Positions 7,215-27,585 of a DNA stretch of 32,000 nucleotides are shown piece after piece; positions within the stretch are counted from its first letter, which is position 1; each line of letters begins with the position of its first letter. The stretch covers positions 660,001 through 692,000 of the forward strand of contig OZ246396.1 of the NCBI GenBank assembly GCA_965230905.1. The letters run 5' to 3'. The translations under genes were made by a program, and so were the position numbers. The DNA is from Candidatus Saccharimonadota bacterium (GTDB taxonomy: Bacteria; Patescibacteriota; Gracilibacteria; UBA1369; 2-02-FULL-48-14). Below the pieces are notes generated by a model that saw nothing but the letters and a program-made list of their open reading frames with translations, did not search any database and was not told where the DNA came from.

Positions 7215-7589
7215 CTACTTTTTCGCGAAGTAGTTTACGTTTGGTAGATCTTTGAAATCAGCATCTTGAGTCCAGAGAGTGGCACCATAGAGGAGGGCAG
7301 TGGCATAGATGATGGAGTCGGCCATACCCAAGCTTTCTCCTAGACTTATTTTGCTCCCTAGTACTGCTGTCCATTCATCAAGTTCAAGAACTTTTCCCAA
7401 CTGCATTTGTTCCATTGCTGTTACTGCTGCTGTTTGTCCGCGTTCTTTCATTACTTTTTTGAACACTTCATAAATGTTTATTGTAGGTACAAGCAAGTTA
7501 TCAATATCTTCAATTGCTTCCGAAAAAAGGTCAGCTCGCTCTGTGTCAGCGAAGTATTCGAGCCAACCTGAAGAATCCACTATATTCAT
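7215..7589 (-). CDS. vapC: type II toxin, PIN-domain ribonuclease VapC
   Basis: 124 aa. The N-terminus MNIVDSSGWLEYF carries the first PIN acidic residue, with later conserved acidic positions (E in INIYEV, D in TQDADF). There is a 4-bp ATGA overlap with the upstream antitoxin gene. Confidence 0.85.
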   Translation of the reverse strand: MNIVDSSGWLEYFADTERADLFSEAIEDIDNLLVPTINIYEVFKKVMKERGQTAAVTAMEQMQLGKVLELDEWTAVLGSKISLGESLGMADSIIYATALLYGATLWTQDADFKDLPNVNYFAKK

Positions 7590-7879: not shown

Positions 7880-10800
7880 TTATTCTTCCGCAATAACCAC
7901 GTCTGGATTTTGAGATAAAAGGCTTATCTTTAAAAATTCTGCGTAACTTACGGCACTGTCTGGTTTGAAGCTGCCGTCTTCATAACCTTTTATAACTCCC
8001 TTTGAGTAGGCGTGGAGTAGGTAAGGGGCGTACCATTCATTCAAGTCTACATCGTTGAAGGGATTTTCATCGAGATCATATAAGGAAAGTAGTTCCTCGT
8101 CTTGAAGGTTTGTGTCCACTGTTTCGTTGAAGAAACGAGCCACGATCTTTAGAGCTTCGGCACGGGAAATGGTTTGAGTGGGGCGGAAGGTGCGGTCGGG
8201 GTAACCGTTGATGAGGCCTTGCTGGTAGGCATAGTCGATATAAGCGGAGCGTTCGTACGTGGGGGGCACGTCTGTGAAAATGCTTTGGGTCTCATCGCTA
8301 AGGGTTACGTCGCTCACTTCATAGGATGAGAGGGACATTAAAAATTCCAATGATTCGCCGCGATTGATGGCTCCATTGGGACTCACGAAAATTTCTACGA
8401 GTATGCTTAGCAAGGTTGGAGCGCTTGTAGCCGTGTTTGCTACTTTTTGTTCTAATTGCAGGTGCTTTAAATAGCCACTGGACCAGTGCACGGGAAGTGG
8501 GTAAGCAAAGTTTTTCCAAAAACTTTCTAAGTTGATAGATGCTTGCTCGGGCGTTGGAGTTGTGGTGACGGTGCTTTCGGTTTCGGTGCTGGTGTTTAGG
8601 GAGATTTCCGTGGATGAGGGCGTTTCGACGGTGCTGTTGGAAGAAGTGTTGTTTCCGTGGTTTTGTGTGAAACTAGCGGCGATGAAAAGGAGAGGAGAGC
8701 TTGTGATATTACCAAAATCATCGATGGTAAAAATTTTAAAATATTTCCAACGGGGGTCACGGCCGTCAATGCGCACCGTGTTTGTGCTTGCTAGGCTTAG
8801 AGCTGCATCGTTGGCAGGTCCCCAGCTTTCTCCCGTTAGGCTGTTCATCTCGGCTGAAGCTTCCCCTTCACCGTGCCAGATTTCGTAGTGCTTGAAGTTG
8901 GAATCTGAAGCGGGTAGCCATGTCAGAATGATGTGGTTGTCGGAAAAATCCATATGATTAAAATTGGTCACGGCGCTTGGTGGAAGGAAGTCTAAGACGA
9001 ATTCGTCGCTCACAATCGTGACCCCGGATTCAGTGCCGTCGTTGGGTGTGATTCGAATTTGTGCATGCGCCGCGTCGGCAGGAAGATCGAGCCGGGCGTT
9101 CCAGTTGAGTAGGGCGGAGCTAGGTCCGCTAGTCGTGCTGAAATTGGTTTGACCGGCGAGGGTTGGACTTGCCCAGGTGTCTCCGCCGTCTGTGCTGTAT
9201 TCGATTTGTGTTTCTACCGCGTCTTGGTCTGTGTCCTCTACGACGAAACTTATTGAAGCTAAACCTGTTCCGTCGGTGCTTTGCTGGGCAGTCAGTTCGC
9301 TAAGAACCGGAGCCACGTTGAAGACCCAGTGCACATTGTTGCCGGAGTTGAGGCTGCTGACTTGTTGAATGGGATTTCCGCCGCTCGCGTTGGAATCGGA
9401 CACATCTACGTACGAGACATTTTGGCTGCCGGTTGAAATTAAATACCAAGGCATGCCGGATTCACTTGATTGAAGCAGCAGAGGGTTCTCGAGGCTACCT
9501 GTTAAGTTTAGCTGCCCGCTCACGGTCTGGGTGCTGCCGGCCGTGAAGGCCAAAAATTTACCGGGATTTATGGAATTCAAATGGTTGAAGTGGTTGTCGC
9601 CGGATATCACGGACGGTGTGCTGGAGGCAAAGCTGACCGTGCCGTTGTTGTGTGAAAAAGTTCCACCGCTTCGATTCCAGTCCTCGTAAATACTCAAGTT
9701 TGCTGTGGGTGCGCTTAAAGTGCCTGAGTTCAACGTGAGGTCACCCGTGATTACCACGTTTGCATTGCCTCCCGTGAAGGTGCCTCCGTTTAGGGTGAGT
9801 GCGGAAGCATGGATGCTAAAAGCGTTTTGTTTGAACTCACCACTTTCAATGGTGAGACTGTTCTCAATATTCAAAATAGCCGAGAGAGCGAAGCTGTCTT
9901 TGGCGGAATTTTGGTCATTGATTTTTAAATCGAAGTAATCGGTTCCGGCGCCAAAGTCGGTAATGGTGAAGCTCTCGGTAAGAAGGTCTCCGTCGCCACT
10001 GTATTCAACCGTTCCGCTGCTCGTGTCCATAAGCCCCGTAAAGGTTTCTGCGCCCAGCCGCCTTAAGGTTCCTTCGTTTGAGAAAGTTCCCGTGACGGAA
10101 AGATTGAATCCATTTTGCGAAAATATTCCTGAAAGAATGGTGAGATTTCCTGCAATGGTTTTGCTGGCGGGAAGATTGAAGAGCGAGTTGGAGTCGCTGC
10201 TTATGATGAGGTTTTGGTAGCTGTAATTCTTGAGCGTGTAGGGGCCGGCTGTACCTTCGTAAAGCACGGTGGATCCAGCTTGAAGAGAGGGGTAGTTGGT
10301 GTTTGCGGTTAAAGTCTCATTGCCGTTCAATTCAAGTATTCCTGTGCTTTGAACGATCAAAGTGCCGGAACTTCCGTTAACGCTTAAATTGTTTCCGTTG
10401 AGCGCGAACGAGCCATTTTGTATTTTTAGATCTTGGCTGCTGGCGTTGAGCACAAGTGCTTGGCTTAGTTCCACGGATCCGCCGAGTTTATTTATGGTGA
10501 GGTCGCCGTCTATATTGTTTACCGCGGTGCTCAGCATTTGGGTGCCTGTTCCGCTGAGCGTGAGTGGCACATTCATTGCATCGGCATCAGCGCCCAGCGT
10601 TAAATTTCCATTCAATTGAATGGAAGCCGTGCTGCCGGAAAGCAGGCCATTTATTATGGTGAGGTCGCTAAAAATCGTCCATGCATCCAGGGCTCCGATG
10701 GTTTTCGTTCCCGTGCTGTTGATGCGTAGTTTGTAAAAACTTTCAGTGTTGGGTACATCAATCGTCGCTCCTGCTCCATTGAATTCCACGGTTCCATTGT

Positions 10801-11923
10801 TGTGGAAAAAGCTTCCACTTGCACCCCGCGTCCATGCTTTTGAAGCGGTGAGTGTCCCCGAAGTGGCGGTGAAGCTGCCTCCTGTCAGGCTCACAATTCC
10901 AGTGAAGCCCAGACTGCTGCTGCCTCCATTAAAAACTCCTGAATTGAGTGTGAAGGTTCCTGCGAAGGTTTTGCTGCCGCTGCCTGCGGTGTAGGTTCCG
11001 CCGGAAAGAGTGACGACCCCGGAATGACTTACGTTGTAGCCGTCCATATTTAAAGTTCCGGACGTGAGCGTGAGGGCTGCAAATTCAATGGTCCCTGAGC
11101 CCGTTCCACTCAGCGTGCTGCCTGTTCCATTTAGGGTAATGGTCTGTGTAAGGTTGGAGGCAAGTTCACCTGGAATGGTGATGGTCTCGTTAGTACTCGT
11201 AATATTAAAAAGTCCGGTTCCGTTTCCGTCCCATGCGGAGGCAATATTTACGGCTCCTTTGGATTGAATGGTGCCTGTGGCCCAGCGACCTTCACTAAGG
11301 TTGAGGGCGCCGTTCACTACCACAGTGTCTCCGCTACTCACGGTTAAAATGACTCCATTGTTTTTATTGATTCGGAAATTGTAAAAATTCACCGCTGTTT
11401 TGCCTGGCAGATTCATGGTCGAGGTGCCTCCATCGAGCTCAACGCTTCCGTTGTTGTGTACAAAGGTTCCAGCTGAGTTGGCCCAGCCGGCGGATACAAA
11501 CAGAGTGCCGGACGTGGATGTGAAGCTGCCACCGGAAAGGGTATAAGTTCCGTTGATGTCTATGTTTGCCGTGTCGCCCAAAAAGGTTCCGGCGGCTTGA
11601 GCATAATTTCCGTTTATAGTGAGCGAACGGGATTGGGTGATTGTGCCGGTGTAGCCGGTGGAAATGGTGAGGCCCGTAACGGTGCCAACGGCGCTGCTGT
11701 CCAGCGTGGCGCTTTTTGTTGAAGTGGTGTTGAAGGTTACGCTGTCGCTCGCAGTGGGGCAGGCATTGCTGGACCAGTTCGCGCAGGTGGACCATTTTGC
11801 GTCTGAGCCACCACCGTCCCAAGTGCGTGAAGCTGCATTGGCAGTGCTTGCTTGTGCCATGCACAAAAGTGCGCCAAGCCCGAGTATAAAGCCGAATAAA
11901 AATGTGTGGTGGAGGATTTTCAT
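7880..11923 (-). CDS. large secreted cell-surface protein: beta-helix-like repeats, Asp-box, FN3-like domain, C-terminal SLH anchors (S-layer/adhesin-like)
   Basis: 1347 aa with the signal peptide MKILHHTFLFGFILGLGALLCMAQASTANA. About 850 aa are Gly/Thr/Ser/Asn-rich beta-strand repeats. It also has the Asp-box YSTDGGDTW, an FN3-like segment (PPSAVTNF...ILTWLPASDSNFKHYEIW) and a Thr/Ser-rich linker. Two clear SLH-like repeats follow (FTDVPP..YIDYAYQQGLINGYPDRTFRP and FNDVDLNEWYAPYLLHAYSKGVIKGYEDGSFKP, DNA about 7883..8278). Confidence 0.85.
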   Translation of the reverse strand: MKILHHTFLFGFILGLGALLCMAQASTANAASRTWDGGGSDAKWSTCANWSSNACPTASDSVTFNTTSTKSATLDSSAVGTVTGLTISTGYTGTITQSRSLTINGNYAQAAGTFLGDTANIDINGTYTLSGGSFTSTSGTLFVSAGWANSAGTFVHNNGSVELDGGTSTMNLPGKTAVNFYNFRINKNNGVILTVSSGDTVVVNGALNLSEGRWATGTIQSKGAVNIASAWDGNGTGLFNITSTNETITIPGELASNLTQTITLNGTGSTLSGTGSGTIEFAALTLTSGTLNMDGYNVSHSGVVTLSGGTYTAGSGSKTFAGTFTLNSGVFNGGSSSLGFTGIVSLTGGSFTATSGTLTASKAWTRGASGSFFHNNGTVEFNGAGATIDVPNTESFYKLRINSTGTKTIGALDAWTIFSDLTIINGLLSGSTASIQLNGNLTLGADADAMNVPLTLSGTGTQMLSTAVNNIDGDLTINKLGGSVELSQALVLNASSQDLKIQNGSFALNGNNLSVNGSSGTLIVQSTGILELNGNETLTANTNYPSLQAGSTVLYEGTAGPYTLKNYSYQNLIISSDSNSLFNLPASKTIAGNLTILSGIFSQNGFNLSVTGTFSNEGTLRRLGAETFTGLMDTSSGTVEYSGDGDLLTESFTITDFGAGTDYFDLKINDQNSAKDSFALSAILNIENSLTIESGEFKQNAFSIHASALTLNGGTFTGGNANVVITGDLTLNSGTLSAPTANLSIYEDWNRSGGTFSHNNGTVSFASSTPSVISGDNHFNHLNSINPGKFLAFTAGSTQTVSGQLNLTGSLENPLLLQSSESGMPWYLISTGSQNVSYVDVSDSNASGGNPIQQVSSLNSGNNVHWVFNVAPVLSELTAQQSTDGTGLASISFVVEDTDQDAVETQIEYSTDGGDTWASPTLAGQTNFSTTSGPSSALLNWNARLDLPADAAHAQIRITPNDGTESGVTIVSDEFVLDFLPPSAVTNFNHMDFSDNHIILTWLPASDSNFKHYEIWHGEGEASAEMNSLTGESWGPANDAALSLASTNTVRIDGRDPRWKYFKIFTIDDFGNITSSPLLFIAASFTQNHGNNTSSNSTVETPSSTEISLNTSTETESTVTTTPTPEQASINLESFWKNFAYPLPVHWSSGYLKHLQLEQKVANTATSAPTLLSILVEIFVSPNGAINRGESLEFLMSLSSYEVSDVTLSDETQSIFTDVPPTYERSAYIDYAYQQGLINGYPDRTFRPTQTISRAEALKIVARFFNETVDTNLQDEELLSLYDLDENPFNDVDLNEWYAPYLLHAYSKGVIKGYEDGSFKPDSAVSYAEFLKISLLSQNPDVVIAEE

Positions 11924-14186: not shown

Positions 14187-14600
14187 TTACTTTTTAGGTT
14201 TCTTAGCTCCATAACGGCTTCGGCTTTGCCGGCGGTTTTGAACCCCTTGGCAATCCAAAGATCCACGGATGATGTGGTAACGAACTCCGGGGAGGTCTTT
14301 AACACGTCCTCCACGAACCATAACAATGGAGTGTTCTTGTAAGTTGTGTCCTTCTCCTCCGATATAAGCATTCACTTCCATTCCATTGGTAAGTCTCACA
14401 CGCGCAATTTTTCGAAGAGCTGAGTTAGGCTTCTTAGGAGTCATGGTCGTCACCTTGGTGCATACTCCGCGTTTAGCGGGGCAAGCTAGGGGACGGTTCT
14501 GAGAACGAAGCGTATTGAAAATAGTCTGAAGCGCAGGAGCTTTACTCTTTTTCTTTACAGCCTTACGAGGCTTGCGGATGAGCTGGTTGATGGTTGGCAT
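14187..14600 (-). CDS. rpsL: 30S ribosomal protein S12
   Basis: 137 aa with [11 protein letters not shown] at the N-terminus, [16 protein letters not shown] and [13 protein letters not shown]. Confidence 0.98.
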
Positions 14601-14663: not shown

Positions 14664-15581
14664 TTAGGGCTGATCTATGCTAAGCACTGGGCGCAACTCT
14701 GTTTCAGCCTCAATATGCTTCGTGCTGCCCCAGGGCGTCCTCACTAAATTTACATCTGGATTGTGAGCGTAGCTGTCCTCTTGAAAGTGGCCATTTGTTA
14801 CCTGATTTGGGTTCGGCAAGTCGAATGGTCCACAAGACACGGTGATGTAATAAGGATCCATTTTTTCAGTTAGGGTGGGAGTTTCAGCGCGGTCCAATTC
14901 CGCCAAATTCCAGAGGCAGGCTGAGGGACTTTGGAACTGTAGAGTTAAAATTTCGCCTCCAACTGCGTTCATACAAGCCTCCGTAGCCTCTTTATCTTCG
15001 TGCGGAGCCATGAGCACCAGGCGATCTTCAGGTGCAGCGCTGGAGTCATAGAAGGTGCTGGTGAAACTTAAAGTACCATCTTGATGCACCAAGGTTTCGG
15101 TATTGATTTTTTCCTGTTCTAGAAAGGAATTGGACTCGCTGAGGTAAATATTCTGGCAGTCACCTAGTATACCACCCACCACCCAAGTCAGCATGTTTTG
15201 AGAATATTCTTTATTTAAGCGATCAAGTTCTCTGTCGGCGCTTTTTGAGAGAGTTAATTTAGGATAAGCACAAACGGCAGCACCTGTTTCAGGGGCTATG
15301 CTATGAGGACGCGTCACCGCTCCCATATATATAAAAGCGGCCAAGCCTATAGTGGCGTGGAAGCTAGTTTGAATGACAGCGCGGGGGAGGACGACACTTT
15401 TTACAAACTCACCTCCATTGTGAGTATGGCGGGTTCCTTCAGTTTCCTCGATGAATTCCAAAAGAGGATTCAACCTTACGTAAACCGCTTGGTGGATTAT
15501 GCGAGCAGCAAAGGCACTGACAATACCCTTTGCAAGGGGATGGATTTCAGGTGTTTTTTGGGTTCGTTCAGGCTTGTTCAC
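14664..15581 (-). CDS. hypothetical protein
   Basis: 305-aa ORF with a GTG start; the next in-frame ATG is not until about codon 86. No signal peptide or recognisable motif. Confidence 0.55.
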   Translation of the reverse strand: MNKPERTQKTPEIHPLAKGIVSAFAARIIHQAVYVRLNPLLEFIEETEGTRHTHNGGEFVKSVVLPRAVIQTSFHATIGLAAFIYMGAVTRPHSIAPETGAAVCAYPKLTLSKSADRELDRLNKEYSQNMLTWVVGGILGDCQNIYLSESNSFLEQEKINTETLVHQDGTLSFTSTFYDSSAAPEDRLVLMAPHEDKEATEACMNAVGGEILTLQFQSPSACLWNLAELDRAETPTLTEKMDPYYITVSCGPFDLPNPNQVTNGHFQEDSYAHNPDVNLVRTPWGSTKHIEAETELRPVLSIDQP

Positions 15582-15587
15582 GCGTAT

Positions 15588-15616
15588 ATTTAAACACTAT
15601 TTTCTTTATACGTCAA
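15588..15616 (-). promoter_or_regulatory. sigma70-like promoter, predicts a leaderless mRNA for ORF 14664..15581
   Basis: The minus strand reads TTGACG-N17-TTAAAT. Only 6 nt (ATACGC) separate the -10 from the GTG start. Confidence 0.4.
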
Positions 15617-15657
15617 TTACCAGGCGGAAAAGCTTATACAGAAAGACCCTTACGCAG

Positions 15658-16008
15658 TTAAAGCAAAATCGCTGACTTAGAGTTGAGGCTCAGCAGGGTT
15701 TTTAAAAGCAAGTCTACTTCTTGAGCGAGTTTTTTAAGATCGCCTTTATTTAACAGATATAGCGAAGCCAGTAAATCTCTCCAGCGGAGCAGCTCAAAGC
15801 GAAGGTTTCCTTTCTGACAGCAAATAGTGAGGTCGGTGAGTTCCAGTGCGCGTTCTATGGTGAGCTTAAGAGTTTCTTCGTCTTGATCTGCTGCGAGGCT
15901 GCTGAGGAGGCGGTTTATCTCATTCCCGATCATGAAAATTTGCTTCTCAGTAGGGAAGCTAGACCAACGTTCGGGGGTTAGACTGGGGTGATGCTTGAGT
16001 GCGTACAT
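15658..16008 (-). CDS. hypothetical helical protein, partner of the DUF5674-like gene
   Basis: 116-aa ORF whose ATG lies 1 nt after the stop of the upstream ORF, so the two are tightly coupled. The composition is Leu/Glu-rich and helical. No motif recognised. Confidence 0.55.
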   Translation of the reverse strand: MYALKHHPSLTPERWSSFPTEKQIFMIGNEINRLLSSLAADQDEETLKLTIERALELTDLTICCQKGNLRFELLRWRDLLASLYLLNKGDLKKLAQEVDLLLKTLLSLNSKSAILL

Positions 16009-16009
16009 T

Positions 16010-16345
16010 TTACTGGATTAGTTTCTCTACAAGTACTTGAATCTGTTTTTGAATGTGTGGATCTTCAACGGACATGCTTTTATTTCCTTGAACGGGGCGA
16101 ATGTTGATGAGCGAAGTAAGTTCAAGCAACTTTGGTGGGCTAAAGTAAATATTCGCACCCCATAGGTTTTCTTGCTTGCTGTCGTGCGACTCTAAAAGAA
16201 GCTCTTCGAGGTCTGCATGAAGTTCGGCGTCGAGTGCGATTATTTCTTGCTCAAGGTCCACGACAATCTTCACCATCTTTTCAAAAAAATGATTGTGATT
16301 TTCTTGGATTTCTTTGAGAGAAAGAGGAGTTTTTATGATGAGCAT
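16010..16345 (-). CDS. DUF5674-like protein
   Basis: MVKIVVDLEQEIIALDAELHADLEELLLESHDSKQENLWGANIYF...LINIRPVQGNKSMSVEDPHIQKQI matches my recollection of the DUF5674 family pattern (KaVvD...HaD...L...GS.QedlWG.N...iNiRP.qgN.s..VeD). The start is placed at the ATG at 16345 (MLIIK). The ORF track begins at a GTG at 16378 that lies inside the upstream palindrome. Confidence 0.6.
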   Translation of the reverse strand: MLIIKTPLSLKEIQENHNHFFEKMVKIVVDLEQEIIALDAELHADLEELLLESHDSKQENLWGANIYFSPPKLLELTSLINIRPVQGNKSMSVEDPHIQKQIQVLVEKLIQ

Positions 16346-16351
16346 GTGGAG

Positions 16352-16380
16352 AGTGTAGCAAGTTTTGTGCACGTGCACAA
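16352..16380 (-). promoter_or_regulatory. promoter of the DUF5674-like operon, predicts a leaderless mRNA
   Basis: The minus strand reads TTGTGC-N17-TACACT, then 6 nt (CTCCAC), then the ATG at 16345. The -35 and spacer are embedded in the 20-bp palindrome. Confidence 0.4.
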
Positions 16381-16382
16381 AA
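16363..16382. promoter_or_regulatory. perfect 20-bp palindrome, putative operator
   Basis: TTTTGTGCACGTGCACAAAA is identical to its reverse complement. It overlaps the -35 and spacer of the DUF5674-like operon promoter. A 14/15-nt copy lies at 25792..25806. Confidence 0.55.
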
Positions 16383-16431
16383 TCGAATCAGTACTTGGCT
16401 CCTTGGTTTGTCAATGTTTGCAGCTTGGGTT

Positions 16432-16447
16432 CTTGCCGCGCGGCAAG
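16432..16447. promoter_or_regulatory. perfect 16-bp GC-rich palindrome in the divergent control region
   Basis: CTTGCCGCGCGGCAAG is identical to its reverse complement. No U-tract follows on either side, so it looks more like a protein-binding site or RNA hairpin than a terminator. Confidence 0.35.
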
Positions 16448-16464
16448 AAAAGCCGCTAGTTGTT

Positions 16465-16493
16465 TTGCGTCAGCAGCTTCTTTGTGTTTTAAT
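16465..16493 (+). promoter_or_regulatory. candidate promoter for ORF 16513..17148
   Basis: TTGCGT-N17-TTTAAT, or TAATAT at N19. It lies about 20 nt upstream of the ATG at 16513. Confidence 0.35.
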
Positions 16494-16512
16494 ATTGGCT
16501 TCTAAGTTAAAT

Positions 16513-17148
16513 ATGGCGATTGAATTTGGCGGTATCGAGTTTGAAGAAGAGGGGAGTTTTTTGCGGCCGAAAGATAAGAAGGTGCAGGTGGAGCGGACCT
16601 GGCTTGACAGTCCAGATTTAAATTCGAGACGTTTGGGTGAACGCATCGTGCTAGCTCCTATTGATAAAGAGGGAAGCTGGGCGGCACGGAAGTCTGATCA
16701 GGTGTGGCCTAATTCGGCGGTTTTTTGGCATCAGGATCGTCTGGGGTGCACGGTTTTGGCGGTAGCGAATATTGCCAATGGCAATCAACGAGGGAATTCT
16801 CGGTGGGTTTCTTCAAGAAACGCCTTGGTGGACTTAGCGGTCATGCCACAGCATAGACCTCGCGTGGCCGAGTTTTTGAACCTCGACCAAAAGAAATTAT
16901 TTGATTTAAATAATGAAGAGTTTATTGCGCATCGAACTCGATTGAATGAATGTATAAGGGCGATTTTGCTAAGTGATGGTGCTCCAGCGGATTTTTCTAA
17001 CGGAGTACTGGAGGTGAATTGGGCGGAAAATCCTTATACCGTTGCCATTTTAAATAATCTAGCTGGTTTCCATGCGGGTACAGCCAAGGGAGTTTTTGGC
17101 GCATTGGCATCCAATGATTTGCATCGGCATATGAAGATTGCTTGCTAG
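16513..17148 (+). CDS. hypothetical protein
   Basis: The ORF is open from 16408. I place the start at the ATG at 16513 (MAIEFGG...), because the upstream 35 codons cover the divergent promoter and palindrome region. That gives 211 aa with no recognisable motif. Confidence 0.55.
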   Translation: MAIEFGGIEFEEEGSFLRPKDKKVQVERTWLDSPDLNSRRLGERIVLAPIDKEGSWAARKSDQVWPNSAVFWHQDRLGCTVLAVANIANGNQRGNSRWVSSRNALVDLAVMPQHRPRVAEFLNLDQKKLFDLNNEEFIAHRTRLNECIRAILLSDGAPADFSNGVLEVNWAENPYTVAILNNLAGFHAGTAKGVFGALASNDLHRHMKIAC

Positions 17149-17160
17149 GCTAAAGCAAAA

Positions 17161-17182
17161 AGCCCCACCTTGCGGCAGGGCT
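17161..17182. terminator. bidirectional rho-independent terminator (rpoC and ORF 16513..17148)
   Basis: On the minus strand: GCCCTGCC-GCAA-GGTGGGGC, an 8-bp stem including two G.U pairs, followed by TTTTT. On the plus strand: the same hairpin with a 2x2 internal loop, followed by T7. It lies 43 nt after the rpoC stop. Confidence 0.7.
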
Positions 17183-17225
17183 TTTTTTGAATGTCCTTTT
17201 GATAGGCTCGACTTCGTCGAGTGGA

Positions 17226-20200
17226 CTAATCCTCGCGGGTGTCGATTTCCTCTCCGCGGAATTGTTTGCGGAAGGTTTCTCCGGCAGGGATCAAACGTCC
17301 GATGATCACGTTTTCCTTGAGACCGGCGAGCAGATCCACTCGGTGAGTGGTTGCAGCCTCCACGAGTACGCGGATGGTTTCTTGGAAGGAAGCGGCTGAG
17401 AGCCAGCTTTCCGTGTGCAGAGCGATACGAGTGAGTCCGAGGAGCAGTCGTTCGTATTCGATGACTGGCTTCTTTTTCTTTTCGAATTCGTTGTTTTCTT
17501 CCACCATCGTTTGGTAGTCCACGATTTCCCCTGGGAGGAAGTCGCTGGCTCCAGATTCCGCCACGCGGATCTTGGAGAACATCTGACGAGTGATGATTTC
17601 GATGTGCTTGTCGTTGATGGTTTGTCCTTGAGACGCGTAGATGCTTTGTACTTCAGACATGATGTACTTTTGCGTGGTGTAGATGTCCGTGAGCTTCATC
17701 AGCTTGCGGAGATTGAGGTGTCCTCCAGTGAGCGGAGTTCCCTTGGCCACGAGGTCGCCGTTCTTAACTTTAACGGTTTTACCAGAATCCACTTTGTATA
17801 CGGACTCAACCACATCTGGCTGAATAACGATTTCCTTTTTGCCGGCTTTCACTACCACTCCATCGAGCGTAGCGCGGAGTTTCTTTCCTCCTTTTTCAGC
17901 GAGCACATCTTTGATGTTGATCTTGTCGTCCTTCTTCACAACCACCTCGAATCCTTCTGGTACTTCGAAGGTTTCTTCGGGTACATCGGTTGGGGTGATG
18001 GTGATGACGGTTTGGTTGGCCTTGTTGCTCACGTTCACCTTTCCATCGATTTCCGCCAAGAGGGCAGGCTTCTTTGGAGTGCGGGCTTCGAAGAGTTCTT
18101 CCACACGAGTCAAACCTTGCGTGATATCGTCTTCGTCGGCGATTCCTCCCATGTGGAAGGTACGCATGGTGAGCTGAGTTCCAGGTTCTCCAATGGACTG
18201 AGCTGCAATGATTCCCACTGCGGTTCCCAGGTCCACGGTCTTGTTGGTTCCAAGGTCACGTCCGTAACACTTTTGGCAAACCCCGTTGAGGGTGAGACAA
18301 GTCATCACAGAACGTACACGGATGGTGGGCAGTTGATCTTCTTTAATGAGTTTGAGAGCAGCCTTGTCGATTTCGGTTCCGGCAGCGATCATCACTTTGC
18401 CTTTCTTATCGAGTACGTCTTCTCCAACCGTGCGTCCGAAGATTCGGTTTTCAAAGGCTTCTCCAATCTTTTCAGATTCTTCACGAGTCACCAAGTGAGT
18501 GCGGTCGGTTCCACAGTCTTCTGCCTTAATAACGATGTCCTGTACCGCGTCCACCAGACGTCGGGTGAGGTATCCGGCTTCAGCCGTCTTAAGCGCGGTG
18601 TCGGATTTACCTTTTCGTCCTCCGTGCGTCGCAATAAAGTATTCCAAGATCGTGAACCCTTCCATCAAGTTGGACTTGATTGGCAATTCAATGGTCTTAC
18701 CGGCGGGATTCGCCACGAGACCTTTCATTCCACATAGCTGAGTGATTTGTCCCCAGTTACCACGAGCTCCAGAATCTACTTGGTAGAAAATGTCGTTTTC
18801 AACATCGAAGCTTTCGATCATCTTTTTGGAGATGTCGTTCTTGGTCGTTCCCCAAACCTTAATGGCTTGGTTGTAACGTTCATCTTCCGTGATGAATCCG
18901 GTTTCAAAGTACTCTTGGATTTGAGCCACAATCTTTTCAGACTTCTTCATGATTTCTGCTTTCTCCTTAGGGATGTGCAGATCGGCTCCAGCAATGGAGA
19001 TTCCGGACTTGGTTGCGTACTTGAACCCGAGTTCCTTGAGGTCGTCACAAAGCTTAGCGGTCACTTCGATTCCATATTTTTCGAATACAAGCGCCACGAT
19101 TTCCGCGATTTCCTTTTTCTTCAAGGTGTGGTTTTGGTAACCCATTCCTTCTGGAACCACGGTGTTGTAAATGGCACGTCCAATGGTGGTCTCGATGATT
19201 TCACCACGCAGACGAATCTTAACCTTGGCTTGCAAATGAACTTCCTTGAAATCCATAGCAATGATGGCTTCTTCCAAGTTTCCAAACACTTTTCCTTCTC
19301 CCTTCTTGTTCTTCTGTTGAACCGTGAGGTAGTAGAGACCAAGCACCATGTCCTGAGTAGGAACGGTGATAGGTTCTCCGGCAGAAGGCTTCAAAAGGTT
19401 ACGAGCGGAACACATGAGTTCGCGGGCTTCTTCTTGAGCTTTGTTGGAAAGGGGAACGTGTACGGCCATCTGATCTCCGTCGAAGTCGGCGTTGAACGCA
19501 GAACATACGAGAGGGTGAACTTGAATAGCCTTACCTTCGATGAGTACAGGTCGGAACGCTTGGATACCCAGACGGTGCAGGGTAGGTGCACGGTTGAGGA
19601 GCACGTAGCGTCCTTTGGTCACGTCTTCCAAGATGTCCCAAATAGCTTTGTCGCTTCCTTGGATCATCTTTTCAGCGCTCTTGATGTTGTGAGCGTACCC
19701 ATCGTTGATGAGTTTTCCAATCACGAAAGGCTTGAAGAGTTCAAGCGCCATGATTTTTGGAAGTCCACATTCGTCGAGTTTGAGGTTTGGTCCAATAACG
19801 ATTACAGAACGTCCGGAGTAATCCACACGTTTACCGAGCAAGTTCTGTCGGAAACGTCCTTGTTTACCCTTGAGCATGTCAGACAGGGAACGGAGCTTGC
19901 GCTTGTCACCTGAGTTGAACACGGTCTTTCCTTGACGAGCTGAGTTATTGATCAAAGTGTCCACGGCTTCTTGAAGCATACGTTTTTCATTTCGGCAGAT
20001 TACCTCTGGTGCTCCAATCGCAATCAAACGTTTGAGACGGTTGTTACGGTTGATCACACGTCGGTAAAGGTCGTTCAAGTCGGAAGCGGCGTAACGCCCT
20101 CCATCGAGCTGAACCATCGGACGAAGATCTGGTGGAATAACAGGCAGAACGGTCATGATCATCCATTCTGATTTGATACCTGCTTTTACAAGAGATCCGA

Positions 20201-21041
20201 TGAGCTTGATGCGCTTCATGATCTTGGTTTTCTTTTGTCCGCTGGCCTTTTCCATTTCGACTTCCATGTCTTTGATCTCTTTGTCCATGTCCATGTTTCC
20301 AATAATCTTGTGCAGAGATTCCGCACCGGTACCGGCCTTGAACACGTGTCCGAATTTCATGGACATGTCTCGGTATTCAAGCTCGGTGAGCACCTTGCTG
20401 TTCTCCAGAGATTCCAAGTCCATGCGGGCTTGTTCCATTTGTTCGTTCAATTCTTCAACCTTGTTTGCTTGTTCTTTTTCAATATCCTTAGGGCTGGTTC
20501 CACCGGCACGAAGACGTTCTTCGTATTCACGGATCAAATCCTTTTTGTAGCTTTGGAACTCGTCGTCCAGCTGAGCAATCGCGGCTTCCTTAGCCTTTTC
20601 ATCCACTTCCGTGATGATGTAAGCGGCAAAGTACACGATTTGTTCGAGCGTCTTCACGGGCAAGTTGAGGAGCAAACCGATACGGCTTGGAGTTGAGCGC
20701 AGGAACCAAATATGAGTCACCGGCACCGCGAGGGTGATGTGTCCCATACGGCTTCGGCGAACGATAGAGCGGGTAACTTCCACTCCACATTTTTCACAAA
20801 TAACTCCCTTGTAACGAATGCGTTTGTATTTTCCACAGGCACATTCCCAGTTCTTCGTAGGACCGAAAATGCGTTCGCAGAAAAGTCCATCACGTTCCGG
20901 CTTTTGAGTTCGGTAGTTGATGGTCTCCGGCTTTTTCACTTCTCCATGAGACCAGGAAAGGATCTGTTCAGGGGAAGCAACGGAGATTGCAATCGCGTCA
21001 AAGAGCACAGGGGCTTTCTTTGAATCTTGATTGTTCATCAT
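17226..21041 (-). CDS. rpoC: DNA-directed RNA polymerase subunit beta-prime
   Basis: 1271 aa with the catalytic NADFDGDQM motif and the N-terminal zinc motif CACGKYKRIRYKGVICEKCGVEV. The start ATG overlaps the stop of the upstream antiporter gene (ATGA). Confidence 0.98.
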   Translation of the reverse strand: MMNNQDSKKAPVLFDAIAISVASPEQILSWSHGEVKKPETINYRTQKPERDGLFCERIFGPTKNWECACGKYKRIRYKGVICEKCGVEVTRSIVRRSRMGHITLAVPVTHIWFLRSTPSRIGLLLNLPVKTLEQIVYFAAYIITEVDEKAKEAAIAQLDDEFQSYKKDLIREYEERLRAGGTSPKDIEKEQANKVEELNEQMEQARMDLESLENSKVLTELEYRDMSMKFGHVFKAGTGAESLHKIIGNMDMDKEIKDMEVEMEKASGQKKTKIMKRIKLIGSLVKAGIKSEWMIMTVLPVIPPDLRPMVQLDGGRYAASDLNDLYRRVINRNNRLKRLIAIGAPEVICRNEKRMLQEAVDTLINNSARQGKTVFNSGDKRKLRSLSDMLKGKQGRFRQNLLGKRVDYSGRSVIVIGPNLKLDECGLPKIMALELFKPFVIGKLINDGYAHNIKSAEKMIQGSDKAIWDILEDVTKGRYVLLNRAPTLHRLGIQAFRPVLIEGKAIQVHPLVCSAFNADFDGDQMAVHVPLSNKAQEEARELMCSARNLLKPSAGEPITVPTQDMVLGLYYLTVQQKNKKGEGKVFGNLEEAIIAMDFKEVHLQAKVKIRLRGEIIETTIGRAIYNTVVPEGMGYQNHTLKKKEIAEIVALVFEKYGIEVTAKLCDDLKELGFKYATKSGISIAGADLHIPKEKAEIMKKSEKIVAQIQEYFETGFITEDERYNQAIKVWGTTKNDISKKMIESFDVENDIFYQVDSGARGNWGQITQLCGMKGLVANPAGKTIELPIKSNLMEGFTILEYFIATHGGRKGKSDTALKTAEAGYLTRRLVDAVQDIVIKAEDCGTDRTHLVTREESEKIGEAFENRIFGRTVGEDVLDKKGKVMIAAGTEIDKAALKLIKEDQLPTIRVRSVMTCLTLNGVCQKCYGRDLGTNKTVDLGTAVGIIAAQSIGEPGTQLTMRTFHMGGIADEDDITQGLTRVEELFEARTPKKPALLAEIDGKVNVSNKANQTVITITPTDVPEETFEVPEGFEVVVKKDDKINIKDVLAEKGGKKLRATLDGVVVKAGKKEIVIQPDVVESVYKVDSGKTVKVKNGDLVAKGTPLTGGHLNLRKLMKLTDIYTTQKYIMSEVQSIYASQGQTINDKHIEIITRQMFSKIRVAESGASDFLPGEIVDYQTMVEENNEFEKKKKPVIEYERLLLGLTRIALHTESWLSAASFQETIRVLVEAATTHRVDLLAGLKENVIIGRLIPAGETFRKQFRGEEIDTRED

Positions 21042-21988
21042 GAGAATAAAGGATTAATAAATTGAAGTAAGAATACGAGGTAGAGCAGAATCATGAGTGC
21101 CCCCTCGTAAGCGGACCACTTTTTTTGAAGTGTAGAAAAAGTAAACAAAATGAGAGCAATGAGCAGAAAGGGCAGGGCCAAGTTGAGCGTATCACCGGTT
21201 ACATTCAGCGTTCCGAAGAAAGAAGGAATGGCCATGACGAGGGTTGCGTTTAGCACCGTGGAAGCCACGAGCAAACTCACCACTGCGTCTCCATTTCCCC
21301 GTTTTGCGGCCCGGTGTGCGAGCAGCATTTCTGGGGCAGACACTCCGAGCGCAACCACGCTGCCACCCAGCACGCTGGGAAGCCAGTTTTGCATTTCGGA
21401 AATCTCAATCACTCCGGTTACCGTGAAGTAGGCTCCGGCCACTAACGCAGCTGCACTCAGCAGAAGGGTCAGGGCAAGGGGAGCGCTCCAAGCTTCCATA
21501 TTGAAAAGTTGGCTGATACGGTCCATGAGGCCTTGTTTGTGGTCTTCACGGCGAGCTGCCAAAAAGACGCCAAGCGCAAGGAGCAGGACACCGCCTTCGA
21601 TTGCCGTGAGGCTTCCGTCGGCGGAAAGAACAACGAGCAAGAACAAAGTACCGAGCAGTAAAGGCACTTGCCGAATGGTGCTCTCTTTCTGCACGCTTAA
21701 CGTTCGTGTGGTCAGTGCGCAGATTCCCATGATCAACAATAAGTTGACCAGGTTTGCGCCCCACACGTAAGCGGGGACAAAAGAGGAGTACCCTTTAGCG
21801 GAAGCTACTGTGGAAATCACCAGTTCAGGCAAGCTGACGCCCAGAGCCATGAGCACCACGCCCCAAAAGAAGGGAGAGAGCTTGCTGGCCCGCGCGCCTT
21901 CCTCTGCCTTGGCAGCAAAGACCTGGGAGGCCGCTGCTGCCACTGCGAGGGAGCTTACGAGGATGAGAGTCCAGAGTAAAATTTGCAT
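21038..21988 (-). CDS. CaCA-superfamily cation/Ca2+ antiporter (YrbG-like Na+/Ca2+ exchanger family)
   Basis: 316 aa and about 10 predicted TM helices. Two internally repeated alpha-repeat signatures, ALGVSLPELVIST...GANLVNLLL and ALGVSAPEMLLAH, correspond to the G(T/S)SxPE motifs. It starts 28 nt after the rpoB stop. Confidence 0.75.
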   Translation of the reverse strand: MQILLWTLILVSSLAVAAAASQVFAAKAEEGARASKLSPFFWGVVLMALGVSLPELVISTVASAKGYSSFVPAYVWGANLVNLLLIMGICALTTRTLSVQKESTIRQVPLLLGTLFLLVVLSADGSLTAIEGGVLLLALGVFLAARREDHKQGLMDRISQLFNMEAWSAPLALTLLLSAAALVAGAYFTVTGVIEISEMQNWLPSVLGGSVVALGVSAPEMLLAHRAAKRGNGDAVVSLLVASTVLNATLVMAIPSFFGTLNVTGDTLNLALPFLLIALILFTFSTLQKKWSAYEGALMILLYLVFLLQFINPLFS

Positions 21989-25565: not shown

Positions 25566-25689
25566 GGGGCTGAGTCGGATTAAGGATGTAAAAAAACGAA
25601 ACTAGACGGATTCCGCTAGGGGAACCCGACTATCGTGCTTTGCTCTCTTGCGCAACTAAATCTGTAATTCGAGAGCGATGTCGACTGCT

Positions 25690-25717
25690 ATTTTATTTAT
25701 AAATGACCAATTGTCAA
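25690..25717 (-). promoter_or_regulatory. sigma70-like promoter for the rpoB operon
   Basis: The minus strand reads TTGACA-N16-TAAAAT. It predicts a 5' leader of roughly 115-120 nt before the rpoB ATG. Confidence 0.5.
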
Positions 25718-25791: not shown

Positions 25792-25821
25792 TTGTGCGCG
25801 TGCACAGATTGCTGGTAAAAT
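25792..25821 (+). promoter_or_regulatory. candidate promoter of the ABC exporter gene with an embedded palindromic operator-like motif
   Basis: TTGTGC-N18-TAAAAT, then 9 nt to the ATG at 25831. The segment TTGTGCGCGTGCACA (25792..25806) matches the 16363..16382 palindrome at 14 of 15 positions. An alternative upstream promoter, TTGACA(25762)-N17-AATAAA, would place the motif at the transcription start. Confidence 0.4.
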
Positions 25822-25830
25822 TTGCCAATT

Positions 25831-27585
25831 ATGAAACAAAGCACCAAGCTCACTTTACGATTTTATGCAAAATATGTGCGCCGGCACTGGGTTTTGGCTT
25901 TGGTGGGCCTGATTGGCGCAATTGGGGGAGCGGCCGGTACGATGATTTTGCCCTTCTTTTTTAAGGATTTTGCAGATGCGCTTACAGCGGGCGAGACGGA
26001 AAAACTGGTGCCCATTCTTATAAGCATGACCGTGGTGTCTTTGGTGGAGTTCGCCTTTTGGCGGACTTCGTTTTATGCGATGGCTTCTTTTGAGGCCACG
26101 GGGATGAAGGAAATTGCGGATGATTGCTTTGAATATTTGCATAAACATTCCTTTAACTTTTTTAGCAATCAATTCGTGGGTTCGCTGGTGAAGCGGGCGA
26201 ACCGAATGGCGCGCAGCTTTGAAGATATTATGGATCGTCTTTATTACGACTTCACGACTTTGGCGGTGCGCATAAGCATTGCGATTGTGGTTTTCTTCTC
26301 CATCGATATGACCTTGGGTTTGATTGTTTTTGCTTGGGTGGTGATTTTTATGGGACTGCACTTGAAGATCGGAAATTATAAGATGGCTCGTTACGACGTG
26401 CCTAAGTCGTTGGCTGACACACGAGTGACCGGCGCGCTGGCGGACACGGTGACCAACAACAGCACTATTAAATTGTTTGCGCGGCTGCCTTTTGAAAAAG
26501 TGGAGTTTGGGAAGGTGACTAAGGATTGGTCTTCCAAAGTCAGGGCTTCTTGGTTCTTCAGTAATCACGTGGAAAGTGTGCAAGTTTTATTTATGGTGGG
26601 GCTGAATTCTTTGGTGCTTTATATCGCGATTGGTATGTGGGAAGAGGGTACTCTTTCGGTTGGATATTTTATTTTATTTCAAACGTATTTTATTGAACTC
26701 TTTTCGCAACTGTGGAGCTTTGAACGTGTGCTTCGGCATTTTTATGAGAACCTCGCAGATGCCGAGGAAATGACGGAAATTTTGAACATGCCTTTTGAAG
26801 TGGTGGATGTGCGCGGTGCCAAAAAACTGCTGGCAAAAAAAGGCGAAGTGAAGTTTGAAAATGTTTCGTTTTCCTACACGGATGATGAAGAAAGCAGTGT
26901 GGTTAAAAATTTGTCTTTCGTGGTGGAGGCAGGGGAGCGCGTGGCTTTGATTGGACCTTCGGGCGGAGGAAAAACGACCATCGTAAAATTGCTGCTGCGT
27001 TTGTTCGATGTGGATAAAGGGCAGATTTTAATCGATGGTCAGGACAGTTCCAAAGTGACGCAGGACAGTTTGCGTGCGAATATTGCACTGGTGCCGCAGG
27101 ATCCGATTTTGTTCCACCGAACGCTCATGGAAAACATTCGTTATGGAAAATTGGATGCCACGGACAGCGAAGTTTTTCGCGCTGCAAAATTGGCGCACTG
27201 CCACGAATTTATTTCTAAATTTCCAAGTGGCTACAAAACTTTGGTGGGGGAACGTGGCGTGAAACTTTCCGGCGGAGAGCGTCAACGCGTGGCGATTGCC
27301 CGTGCCATTTTAGCCGACACAAAGATTTTAATTTTGGATGAGGCGACGAGCAGTTTGGACAGCGAATCCGAAAAACTTATTAAGGACGCGATGCGCGTTT
27401 TGATGAAAGGAAAAACAGTGTTCATTATTGCGCACCGGCTTTCTACTATTGTGGATATGGATCGCATAATTGTGCTCGAAAAAGGTCGTATTGTGGAAGA
27501 AGGCGGTCACAAAGATTTACTTAAAAAGAAAGGCGGGCTTTACAAGCGCCTTTGGGATTTGCAAGTGGGTGGTTATTTGGAGTGA
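25831..27585 (+). CDS. ABC transporter, fused permease/ATPase (type I exporter, MsbA-like)
   Basis: N-terminal six-helix TMD. The NBD carries Walker A GPSGGGKTT, Q-loop VPQDP, signature LSGGERQRVAIARA, Walker B ILILDEATS and H-loop IIAHRLS. The ATG at 25831 (MKQSTKL) is preferred over the TTG at 25822 used by the ORF track. Confidence 0.9.
   Translation: MKQSTKLTLRFYAKYVRRHWVLALVGLIGAIGGAAGTMILPFFFKDFADALTAGETEKLVPILISMTVVSLVEFAFWRTSFYAMASFEATGMKEIADDCFEYLHKHSFNFFSNQFVGSLVKRANRMARSFEDIMDRLYYDFTTLAVRISIAIVVFFSIDMTLGLIVFAWVVIFMGLHLKIGNYKMARYDVPKSLADTRVTGALADTVTNNSTIKLFARLPFEKVEFGKVTKDWSSKVRASWFFSNHVESVQVLFMVGLNSLVLYIAIGMWEEGTLSVGYFILFQTYFIELFSQLWSFERVLRHFYENLADAEEMTEILNMPFEVVDVRGAKKLLAKKGEVKFENVSFSYTDDEESSVVKNLSFVVEAGERVALIGPSGGGKTTIVKLLLRLFDVDKGQILIDGQDSSKVTQDSLRANIALVPQDPILFHRTLMENIRYGKLDATDSEVFRAAKLAHCHEFISKFPSGYKTLVGERGVKLSGGERQRVAIARAILADTKILILDEATSSLDSESEKLIKDAMRVLMKGKTVFIIAHRLSTIVDMDRIIVLEKGRIVEEGGHKDLLKKKGGLYKRLWDLQVGGYLE

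Follow-up and report, generated by a model that had tools for sequence, protein, structure and literature searches.

Gene content of the rpoC–rpsL spacer

We analyzed a 32,000-nt stretch of a Candidatus Saccharimonadota bacterium genome (assembly GCA_965230905.1, contig OZ246396.1, positions 660,001 to 692,000; hereafter the window), in which the genes rpoC and rpsL are separated by a spacer holding a gene of the DUF5674 family, a coupled partner gene (orf116), and two further genes (orf305 and orf211). A previous reading of the stretch made from its letters alone (the sequence-only reading) had placed four open reading frames (ORFs) between rpsL and rpoC, and the ORF map confirmed all four at the same coordinates:

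14187–14600, minus strand: rpsL
14664–15581, minus strand: orf305, GTG start, an orphan gene and separate cargo of the spacer
15658–16008, minus strand: orf116, the partner gene, 116 aa, ATG start
16010–16345, minus strand: the DUF5674 gene (Pfam PF18924), 111 aa, first gene of the bicistron
16513–17148, plus strand: orf211, 211 aa, ATG start, a strain-variable cargo gene
17160–17186, unstranded: G+C-rich hairpin with A/T runs on its flanks, bidirectional terminator-like, at the convergent ends of orf211 and rpoC
17226–21041, minus strand: rpoC

The start of the DUF5674 gene (ATG at 16345) is supported by 111-aa homologs that share the start residue, and that of orf211 (ATG at 16513) by all of its homologs, which do likewise. 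The comparisons described below support well an architecture comprising a hot spot of gene turnover, one bicistronic module under repressor-type control, and two cargo genes.

Turnover of the spacer among close relatives

The window belongs to a Peregrinibacteria-like genome and matched a 1.3-Mb contig recovered from Hainich groundwater. We compared it with three relatives, L005 (GCA_040960175.1), L089 (GCA_964476745.1), and L095, whose RpoC proteins are 92–94% identical to that of the window and to one another where compared. Comparative gene maps revealed four different gene contents in the rpoC–rpsL gap of the four genomes:

Window: the divergent orf211, followed by DUF5674, orf116, and orf305
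L005: a 62-aa ORF, DUF5674, and orf116, then straight into rpsL
L089: a divergent 295-aa gene, a 454-aa homolog of orf305, and a 75-aa ORF, with no DUF5674 pair
L095: DUF5674 and its partner, a fused degenerate second copy, and an unrelated 357-aa gene

Three of the four genomes have the pair in this spacer; L089 does not. Between the window and L005, orf305 behaves as a clean indel, and orf211 is absent from all three relatives. No homology was found between orf211 and the divergent 295-aa gene of L089, or between orf305 and the 357-aa gene of L095. The rpoB–tuf supercluster of the window is itself broken by inserts, namely a Na/Ca exchanger gene between rpoB and rpoC, a 336-aa orphan, a lipoprotein-like ORF, a gene for a 1347-aa SLH protein, a PIN gene, and a 340-aa orphan. 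Because the contents differ among close relatives and the supercluster is full of unrelated inserts, the spacer is a turnover hot spot, and the assignment of orf305 and orf211 as independent, strain-variable cargo genes is well supported. The location of the pair between RNA polymerase (RNAP) and ribosomal protein genes is confined to this lineage. Since the spacer turns over and the pair stands elsewhere in unrelated contexts, its position carries no functional implication, and the hint of a role in transcription or translation that the sequence-only reading had drawn from this placement was not borne out. For annotation, position in the rpoBC–str supercluster of genomes of the candidate phyla radiation is no evidence of function.

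DUF5674 and its partner form an obligate pair

The DUF5674 protein of the window is a full-length member of PF18924 (98.2 bits against a 27-bit cut-off, E = 3.5e-28, model positions 2–109 of 109), an entry for which Pfam records no function. Sequence searches recovered more than 310 homologs, and the family was found in at least 483 of 185,579 GTDB species genomes. Among the matches listed, the phyla included Patescibacteria, Cloacimonadota, Bacteroidota, Fibrobacterota, Omnitrophota, Acidobacteriota, Calditrichota, Elusimicrobiota, and others; the closest named homologs belonged to metagenome-assembled genomes (MAGs) of Peregrinibacteria and Peribacteria, and some Peribacteria homologs (50–51% identity) were more distant than those of Cloacimonadota, Clostridia, and Bacteroidales (55–56%).

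A direct search with orf116 gave 13 homologs, found directly after a DUF5674 gene in three unrelated contexts. A hidden Markov model (HMM) built from 14 orf116-type sequences matched the ORF beside DUF5674 in 85 of the 85 testable loci, that is, loci in which the flank was present, and the two misses were contig ends. The partner lay downstream on the same strand in 84 of these loci and upstream in the remaining one, and the junctions were mostly −4, −1, or +1 nt, with a +1-nt gap in the window. These data showed the obligate adjacency and translational coupling of the pair. The sequence-only reading had called the 111/116-aa pair tightly coupled and had left its conserved linkage to be checked; the unit with the 1-nt gap proved to be real, with the linkage kept across many phyla. 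Both genes are under strong purifying selection, with ratios of nonsynonymous to synonymous substitution rates (dN/dS) between the window and L005 of 0.03 for DUF5674 and 0.04 for the partner at a dS of ~1.2. The overall range for DUF5674 was 0.03–0.07, and the values of the pair were as low as those for rpsL and rpsG.

No third gene was conserved beside the pair, the largest neighbor cluster covering seven of 80 loci in blast clustering of 399 neighbors. The 148 immediate neighbors, scanned with Pfam and PADLOC, were diverse and mostly ordinary metabolic or housekeeping genes, and neither the clustering nor the scans linked a pathway gene to the pair. At one locus (L001), the pair adjoined vapBC. 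Distant DUF5674 genes (31–40% identity) were carried by megaplasmids of Nostoc, Calothrix, and Gloeothece, where one plasmid copy adjoined an IS4 transposase gene and a NERD-domain gene. The best explanation for this distribution is an old, self-contained two-protein module that moves as a unit between unrelated contexts. Phage carriage was rejected, as no DUF5674 was present in the phage collections INPHARED and IMG/VR.

Three further observations concern the partner and the setting of the pair. In the two Nostoc loci examined, an overlapping 118-aa ORF directly followed DUF5674; it was considered as a member of the partner family and set aside, being collinear with it at a level short of significance (no match to the partner HMM; hhalign E = 0.1). 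In a Clostridia MAG (L015, 1877–2377), the partner was C-terminally fused to a Trm112p/YcaR-like zinc ribbon (PF03966, E = 5e-10), a single case. In a more distant Peregrinibacterium from Hainich (L097, 3329–6605), whose DUF5674 protein is 68% identical to that of the window, the pair was divergent from rplJ–rplL and directly upstream of miaA, a context that differs from the window yet again lies near translation genes.

A palindromic control region accompanies the pair in close relatives

The divergent starts of DUF5674 and orf211 are separated by 167 nt. Elements of this region, and one similar element located elsewhere in the window, are as follows:

16352–16357, minus strand: −10-like TACACT, 6 nt before the DUF5674 ATG, in leaderless geometry (function inferred from sequence)
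16363–16382, unstranded: P1, a perfect 20-mer palindrome (TTTTGTGCACGTGCACAAAA), an operator-like dyad over the −35/spacer of the promoter of the pair
16430–16449, unstranded: P2, a perfect 20-mer palindrome (TTCTTGCCGCGCGGCAAGAA), lying 47 nt beyond P1 as seen from the pair
25793–25806, unstranded: P1-like dyad (TGTGCGCGTGCACA) in the same register, with a −10 TAAAAT and the ATG of an ABC-transporter gene at 25832

Two perfect palindromes of 20 and 16 bp had been reported here by the sequence-only reading; both exist, and the lengths are 20 and 20 bp. Markov shuffles gave an expectation of 0.03 perfect palindromes of ≥20 bp per 32-kb window, against three observed, two of them in this spacer. 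The third (TTCCATTCAATTGAATGGAA, 10606–10625) lies inside the gene for the 1347-aa SLH protein.

P1 is located 17 nt upstream of the DUF5674 ATG, in the order P1, CTTGC, TACACT, 6 nt, ATG. The same layout was found in L005 (ATCTGTGCACGTGCACAGAT ... TATAGT, 6 nt, ATG) and twice in L095 (CGTGCAC[G/A]... ... TATATT or TATAGT, 6 nt, ATG). The 12-nt core of P1 (GTGCACGTGCAC) was invariant in the window, L005, and both L095 copies, and its flanks changed symmetrically (TTTT..AAAA versus ATCT..AGAT; T..A versus C..G). The invariant core and the symmetric flank changes, despite saturated synonymous divergence, are good evidence for selection on dyad symmetry. The operator-like element that the sequence-only reading had placed over the promoter of the pair was upheld in this respect, with the dyad overlapping the promoter and its symmetry kept via compensatory changes. 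These features point to P1 as a predicted binding site of a dimeric protein, overlapping the −35/spacer of a promoter whose geometry is leaderless.

L095, although without orf211, keeps the core of P2 (TTGCCGCGCGGCAA) and the next ~40 nt in front of the pair; its duplicated copy has a degenerate P2, and L005 has none. The tandem duplicate in L095 brought the whole control region along. Because P1 and P2 are present in L095 without the divergent gene, they belong to the operon of the pair and not to a shared divergent switch, as had been supposed. The duplicate itself (L095, 5830–6195) is a 121-aa ORF in which the C-terminus of DUF5674 (LINIRPAQGNKSM...) continues in frame into a partner-like stretch with internal deletions; a P1 copy and promoter of its own stand upstream, and the ORF represents a decaying tandem duplicate of the pair.

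The P1-like dyad of the ABC-transporter promoter was absent from the corresponding L005 promoter. Its occurrence suggests that P1 may belong to a portable promoter/operator type read by a lineage-specific regulator. A general DUF5674 operator was ruled out by the lack of enrichment of upstream palindromes at 79 other DUF5674 loci from other phyla, and a structured RNA in the divergent spacer was rejected, with no Rfam match and a folding z-score of −0.22.

Predicted structures of the pair

The AF2 model of DUF5674 had a predicted local distance difference test score (pLDDT) of 96.8 and a beta-alpha-beta-beta-alpha-beta-beta-alpha topology. Foldseek returned no meaningful structural match in the PDB (best template-modeling (TM) score 0.35) or in BFVD, and searches of the PDB by sequence and by profile likewise gave no match. 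In an alignment of 70 sequences, the invariant residues were K26, D30, H43, D45, E47, W62-G63-x-N65, and N81-x-R83-P84. The partner was modeled as a helical bundle (pLDDT 93.5) and has no Pfam family; Arg and Glu make up most of its conserved residues, which fall in the motifs NExNR, ERAxE, and ELLRxR. Foldseek gave the partner only generic matches (FliS, MIT domains, designed bundles) at TM ~0.5 and E ≥ 0.35. The partner resembles FliS-type export chaperones in its similar size and its up-down helical bundle, and differs from them in that the match (E = 0.35, 11–18% identity) is a generic bundle likeness without flagellar context, so membership is unsupported.

The two products also differ in charge. 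The median isoelectric point (pI) was 4.9 for DUF5674 and 8.8 for the partner, which is mostly basic, and the DUF5674 protein of the window is acidic (pI ~5). In the cyanobacterial DUF5674 proteins, two acidic positions are replaced (D39 to G and D45 to Y), and the protein encoded downstream has diverged too far to be recognized, a combination that would be compatible with a co-evolving charged interface.

Possible function of the pair and alternative explanations

We consider it on balance probable that the locus combines a hot spot of gene turnover, one conserved bicistron of DUF5674 and its partner, and two independent cargo genes, operating by the following mechanism. DUF5674 and its partner would form a stoichiometric complex via the invariant Asp/Glu residues of the former and the invariant Arg residues of the latter. 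The operon would be transcribed as a leaderless mRNA from the promoter overlapped by P1, with P2 upstream, and the arrangement of P1 over the promoter would imply repression by a dimeric DNA-binding protein, either a product of the pair itself or a trans-acting regulator. As to the function of the pair, we tentatively propose an effector and its neutralizer following a toxin–antitoxin (TA)-like logic, in toxin-first order as in higBA or hicAB, a possibility to which we give somewhat less than even weight. On this proposal DUF5674, the more conserved protein, would be the active component, and the faster-evolving partner would control it. It draws on the size and coupling of the two components, on their unequal conservation and complementary charges, and on a distribution that is patchy across phyla, as well as on presence/absence and duplication-decay in close relatives, on carriage by plasmids, and on the dyad at the promoter.

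The operons higBA, hicAB, and mqsRA are type II TA systems with toxin-first order, and type II antitoxins carry a DNA-binding domain (ribbon-helix-helix, helix-turn-helix, AbrB, Phd/YefM, and others). The pair resembles such systems in consisting of two adjacent, co-oriented, and translationally coupled genes for proteins of ~110 aa, in the greater conservation of the first product, and in the combination of an acidic and a basic product. Further likenesses are a variable context, a patchy distribution, plasmid carriage in one clade, and the promoter dyad of this lineage. Several observations, however, weigh against the proposed mechanism and its TA-like logic. No known toxin fold or family was recognized for the pair among Pfam, NCBIfam, PADLOC, PHROGs, PDB sequences, and PDB structures, neither protein has a DNA-binding domain (Pfam and NCBIfam; no significant Foldseek match), and no TA or defense profile of PADLOC or NCBIfam matched. 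No genome among the 80 loci was multi-copy, each locus being a separate contig and genome record, and the 148 immediate neighbors were ordinary, with few and mostly single PADLOC defense-profile matches. The operator is not conserved beyond this lineage, given the lack of palindrome enrichment at the 79 loci from other phyla, and the P1-like site at the ABC-transporter promoter disfavors P1 as a private autoregulatory operator. Finally, the stoichiometric complex is a step that we infer, and leaderless transcription of the pair appears likely from geometry only, and the ~50% identity across phyla and dN/dS values as low as those of ribosomal proteins fit a cooperative cellular function equally well.

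Such a function would make the pair a cooperative two-subunit cellular factor, for example a small enzyme or ligand-binding protein with an adaptor or chaperone-like helical subunit, serving an accessory physiological role without addiction or toxin logic. We regard this explanation as rather unlikely, although very strong purifying selection on both genes, the identity across phyla, the lack of multi-copy genomes, the ordinary neighbors with their scarce defense-profile matches, and the absence of TA/defense HMM matches and of toxin or DNA-binding folds all accord with it, as do the FliS-type chaperone bundles that are the best, though weak, structural neighbors of the partner. It accounts poorly for a distribution as patchy as at least 483 of 185,579 species genomes, for the absence of the pair from the same spacer in L089, for the duplication-and-decay remnant in L095, for plasmid carriage in cyanobacteria, and for the lack of a linked pathway gene in the neighbors scanned. 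Far less probable is a divergent TA module of the HEPN-MNT type, that is, a nucleotidyltransferase (NTase) with a HEPN RNase, which we hold to be almost out of the question. The similar sizes, the gene overlap, and the order of an alpha/beta first protein and an all-helical second recall such modules, and Pol-beta NTase genes adjoin the pair in four loci; yet the 70-sequence alignment of DUF5674 lacks the G[GS]x9-13Dx[DE] motif, the partner lacks Rx4-6H and has no conserved His after its invariant Arg residues, Foldseek of the two high-confidence models found no NTase or HEPN structure, and Pfam, NCBIfam, and PADLOC gave no match. Motifs and Foldseek ruled out HEPN-MNT, PD-(D/E)xK, and NTase identities for the pair, and known TA, defense, and phage families were rejected because PADLOC, NCBIfam, and PHROGs contained no match.

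The sequence-only reading had instead taken all four genes as one candidate undescribed module under shared divergent palindromic control, possibly acting on RNAP or the ribosome. The position between rpoC and rpsL, the presence of the pair in this spacer in three of four genomes, and its place beside rplJ–rplL and miaA in L097 would agree with that idea. Nevertheless, relatives with 92–94% identical RpoC lack orf305 and orf211 or carry replacements for them, the two genes accompany the pair nowhere else, the rpoB–tuf cluster is full of unrelated insertions, the surroundings of the pair in other phyla have no connection with transcription or translation, and both palindromes stay with the pair where the divergent gene is absent. 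The comparative data essentially refute the four-gene module, and we give it only a very slight probability.

Obligate pairing, an unclassified partner family, and an unmatched fold appear undescribed, and no mention of DUF5674, PF18924, the pairing, or the Nostoc accessions was found in the literature searched. A more far-reaching proposal, which we put forward as doubtful, is that DUF5674 and its partner constitute an undescribed two-protein system present in more than 15 phyla, with a fold without a solved relative, for example a new TA/stress-switch family or a new small enzyme–regulator complex; its Peregrinibacteria members would sit within the RNAP/ribosomal-protein supercluster under a double-dyad operator of their own. 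Having a coupled partner in every testable locus, DUF5674 is no longer just a Pfam entry of the "known unknown" kind but one half of a defined two-component system; selection on the pair matches that on ribosomal proteins in strength, although the pair behaves like an accessory module. This combination makes it a good and inexpensive subject for structural and functional studies, and in Nostoc punctiforme a version amenable to genetics, NPUN_RS34590/34595, is carried on pNPUN01.

Cargo genes orf211 and orf305

The sequence-only reading had stated that none of the four products had an assignable function; this needs correction for orf211 alone, which carries a weak but coherent TauD-like signature. 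Among 1.84 billion representatives, orf211 had seven homologs. The family (seven sequences) shares the invariant pattern WHxD ... NxR ... W ... GxH, including W72-H73-x-D75 and G185-x-H187, which supplies an HxD...H metal-binding triad in TauD/TfdA order and aligns with the WHTD and distal QH motifs of TauD. A profile search against the PDB matched only TauD entries (E = 0.012–0.42), in alignments that paired both the HxD motif and the distal His. In hhalign against E. coli TauD (local E = 8e-4, 24% probability), the block W..P..[IV].[IV].[DN]N....H corresponded to the C-terminal His motif. The aligned TauD residues are His99/Asp101 and His255 (E. coli TauD numbering).

In addition to WHxD and the distal GxH, the G-x-T-x-W and C-terminal L-[YH]-R motifs of orf211 are collinear with those of TauD/TfdA. 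Unlike these proteins, orf211 has 211 aa instead of ~283 aa, falls below the Pfam threshold (no Pfam TauD match up to E = 1), and belongs to a tiny family. We conclude with reasonable confidence that orf211 probably encodes a short, divergent TauD/TfdA-like Fe(II)/2-oxoglutarate oxygenase.

For orf305, one homolog was found in 5.8 billion proteins (P0135, 454 aa, 37% identity, E = 9e-62). It is the gene that sits in the rpoC–rpsL spacer of L089 without the DUF5674 pair, and its occupation of the same spacer argues that orf305 is a genuine gene. Searches of Pfam, NCBIfam, PADLOC, PHROGs, and the PDB gave no match for orf305, and the 454-aa homolog as query gave no function either; by these searches, orf305 is a lineage-restricted orphan. 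A promoter-like element precedes it:

15588–15616, minus strand: TTGACG-17 nt-TTAAAT, 6 nt before the orf305 GTG, a putative promoter read from the sequence

A consensus promoter scan missed this element.

Other features of the rpoB–tuf supercluster

Between rpoB and rpoC lies a gene for a 316-aa membrane protein of the Na+/Ca2+ exchanger family (window 21038–21988, minus strand), with a 4-nt overlap between its stop codon and the rpoC ATG. All four genomes keep this gene (L005 4437–5387, L089 218–1168, and L095 1–734). A membrane transporter translationally coupled within the rpoBC operon is unusual.

The gap between rpsG and fusA contains two of the inserts. A gene for a PIN-domain (VapC-like) protein, preceded by a small ORF (window 7215–7589, minus strand; L005 13281–13655; L095 9233–9607), is a classical TA-type insertion in the str cluster that is conserved in the relatives. 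The gene for the 1347-aa SLH-domain surface protein (window 7880–11923, minus strand) is a further, strain-specific insertion in the same supercluster, as L005 has only small ORFs there.

Upstream of rpoB, ~140 nt of non-coding sequence (window ~25566–25710; L005 ~700–870) were ~90% identical between the window and L005, in contrast to the saturated synonymous sites of the flanking genes (dS ~1.2). The stretch has no Rfam match and is a candidate for a conserved leader or regulatory RNA.

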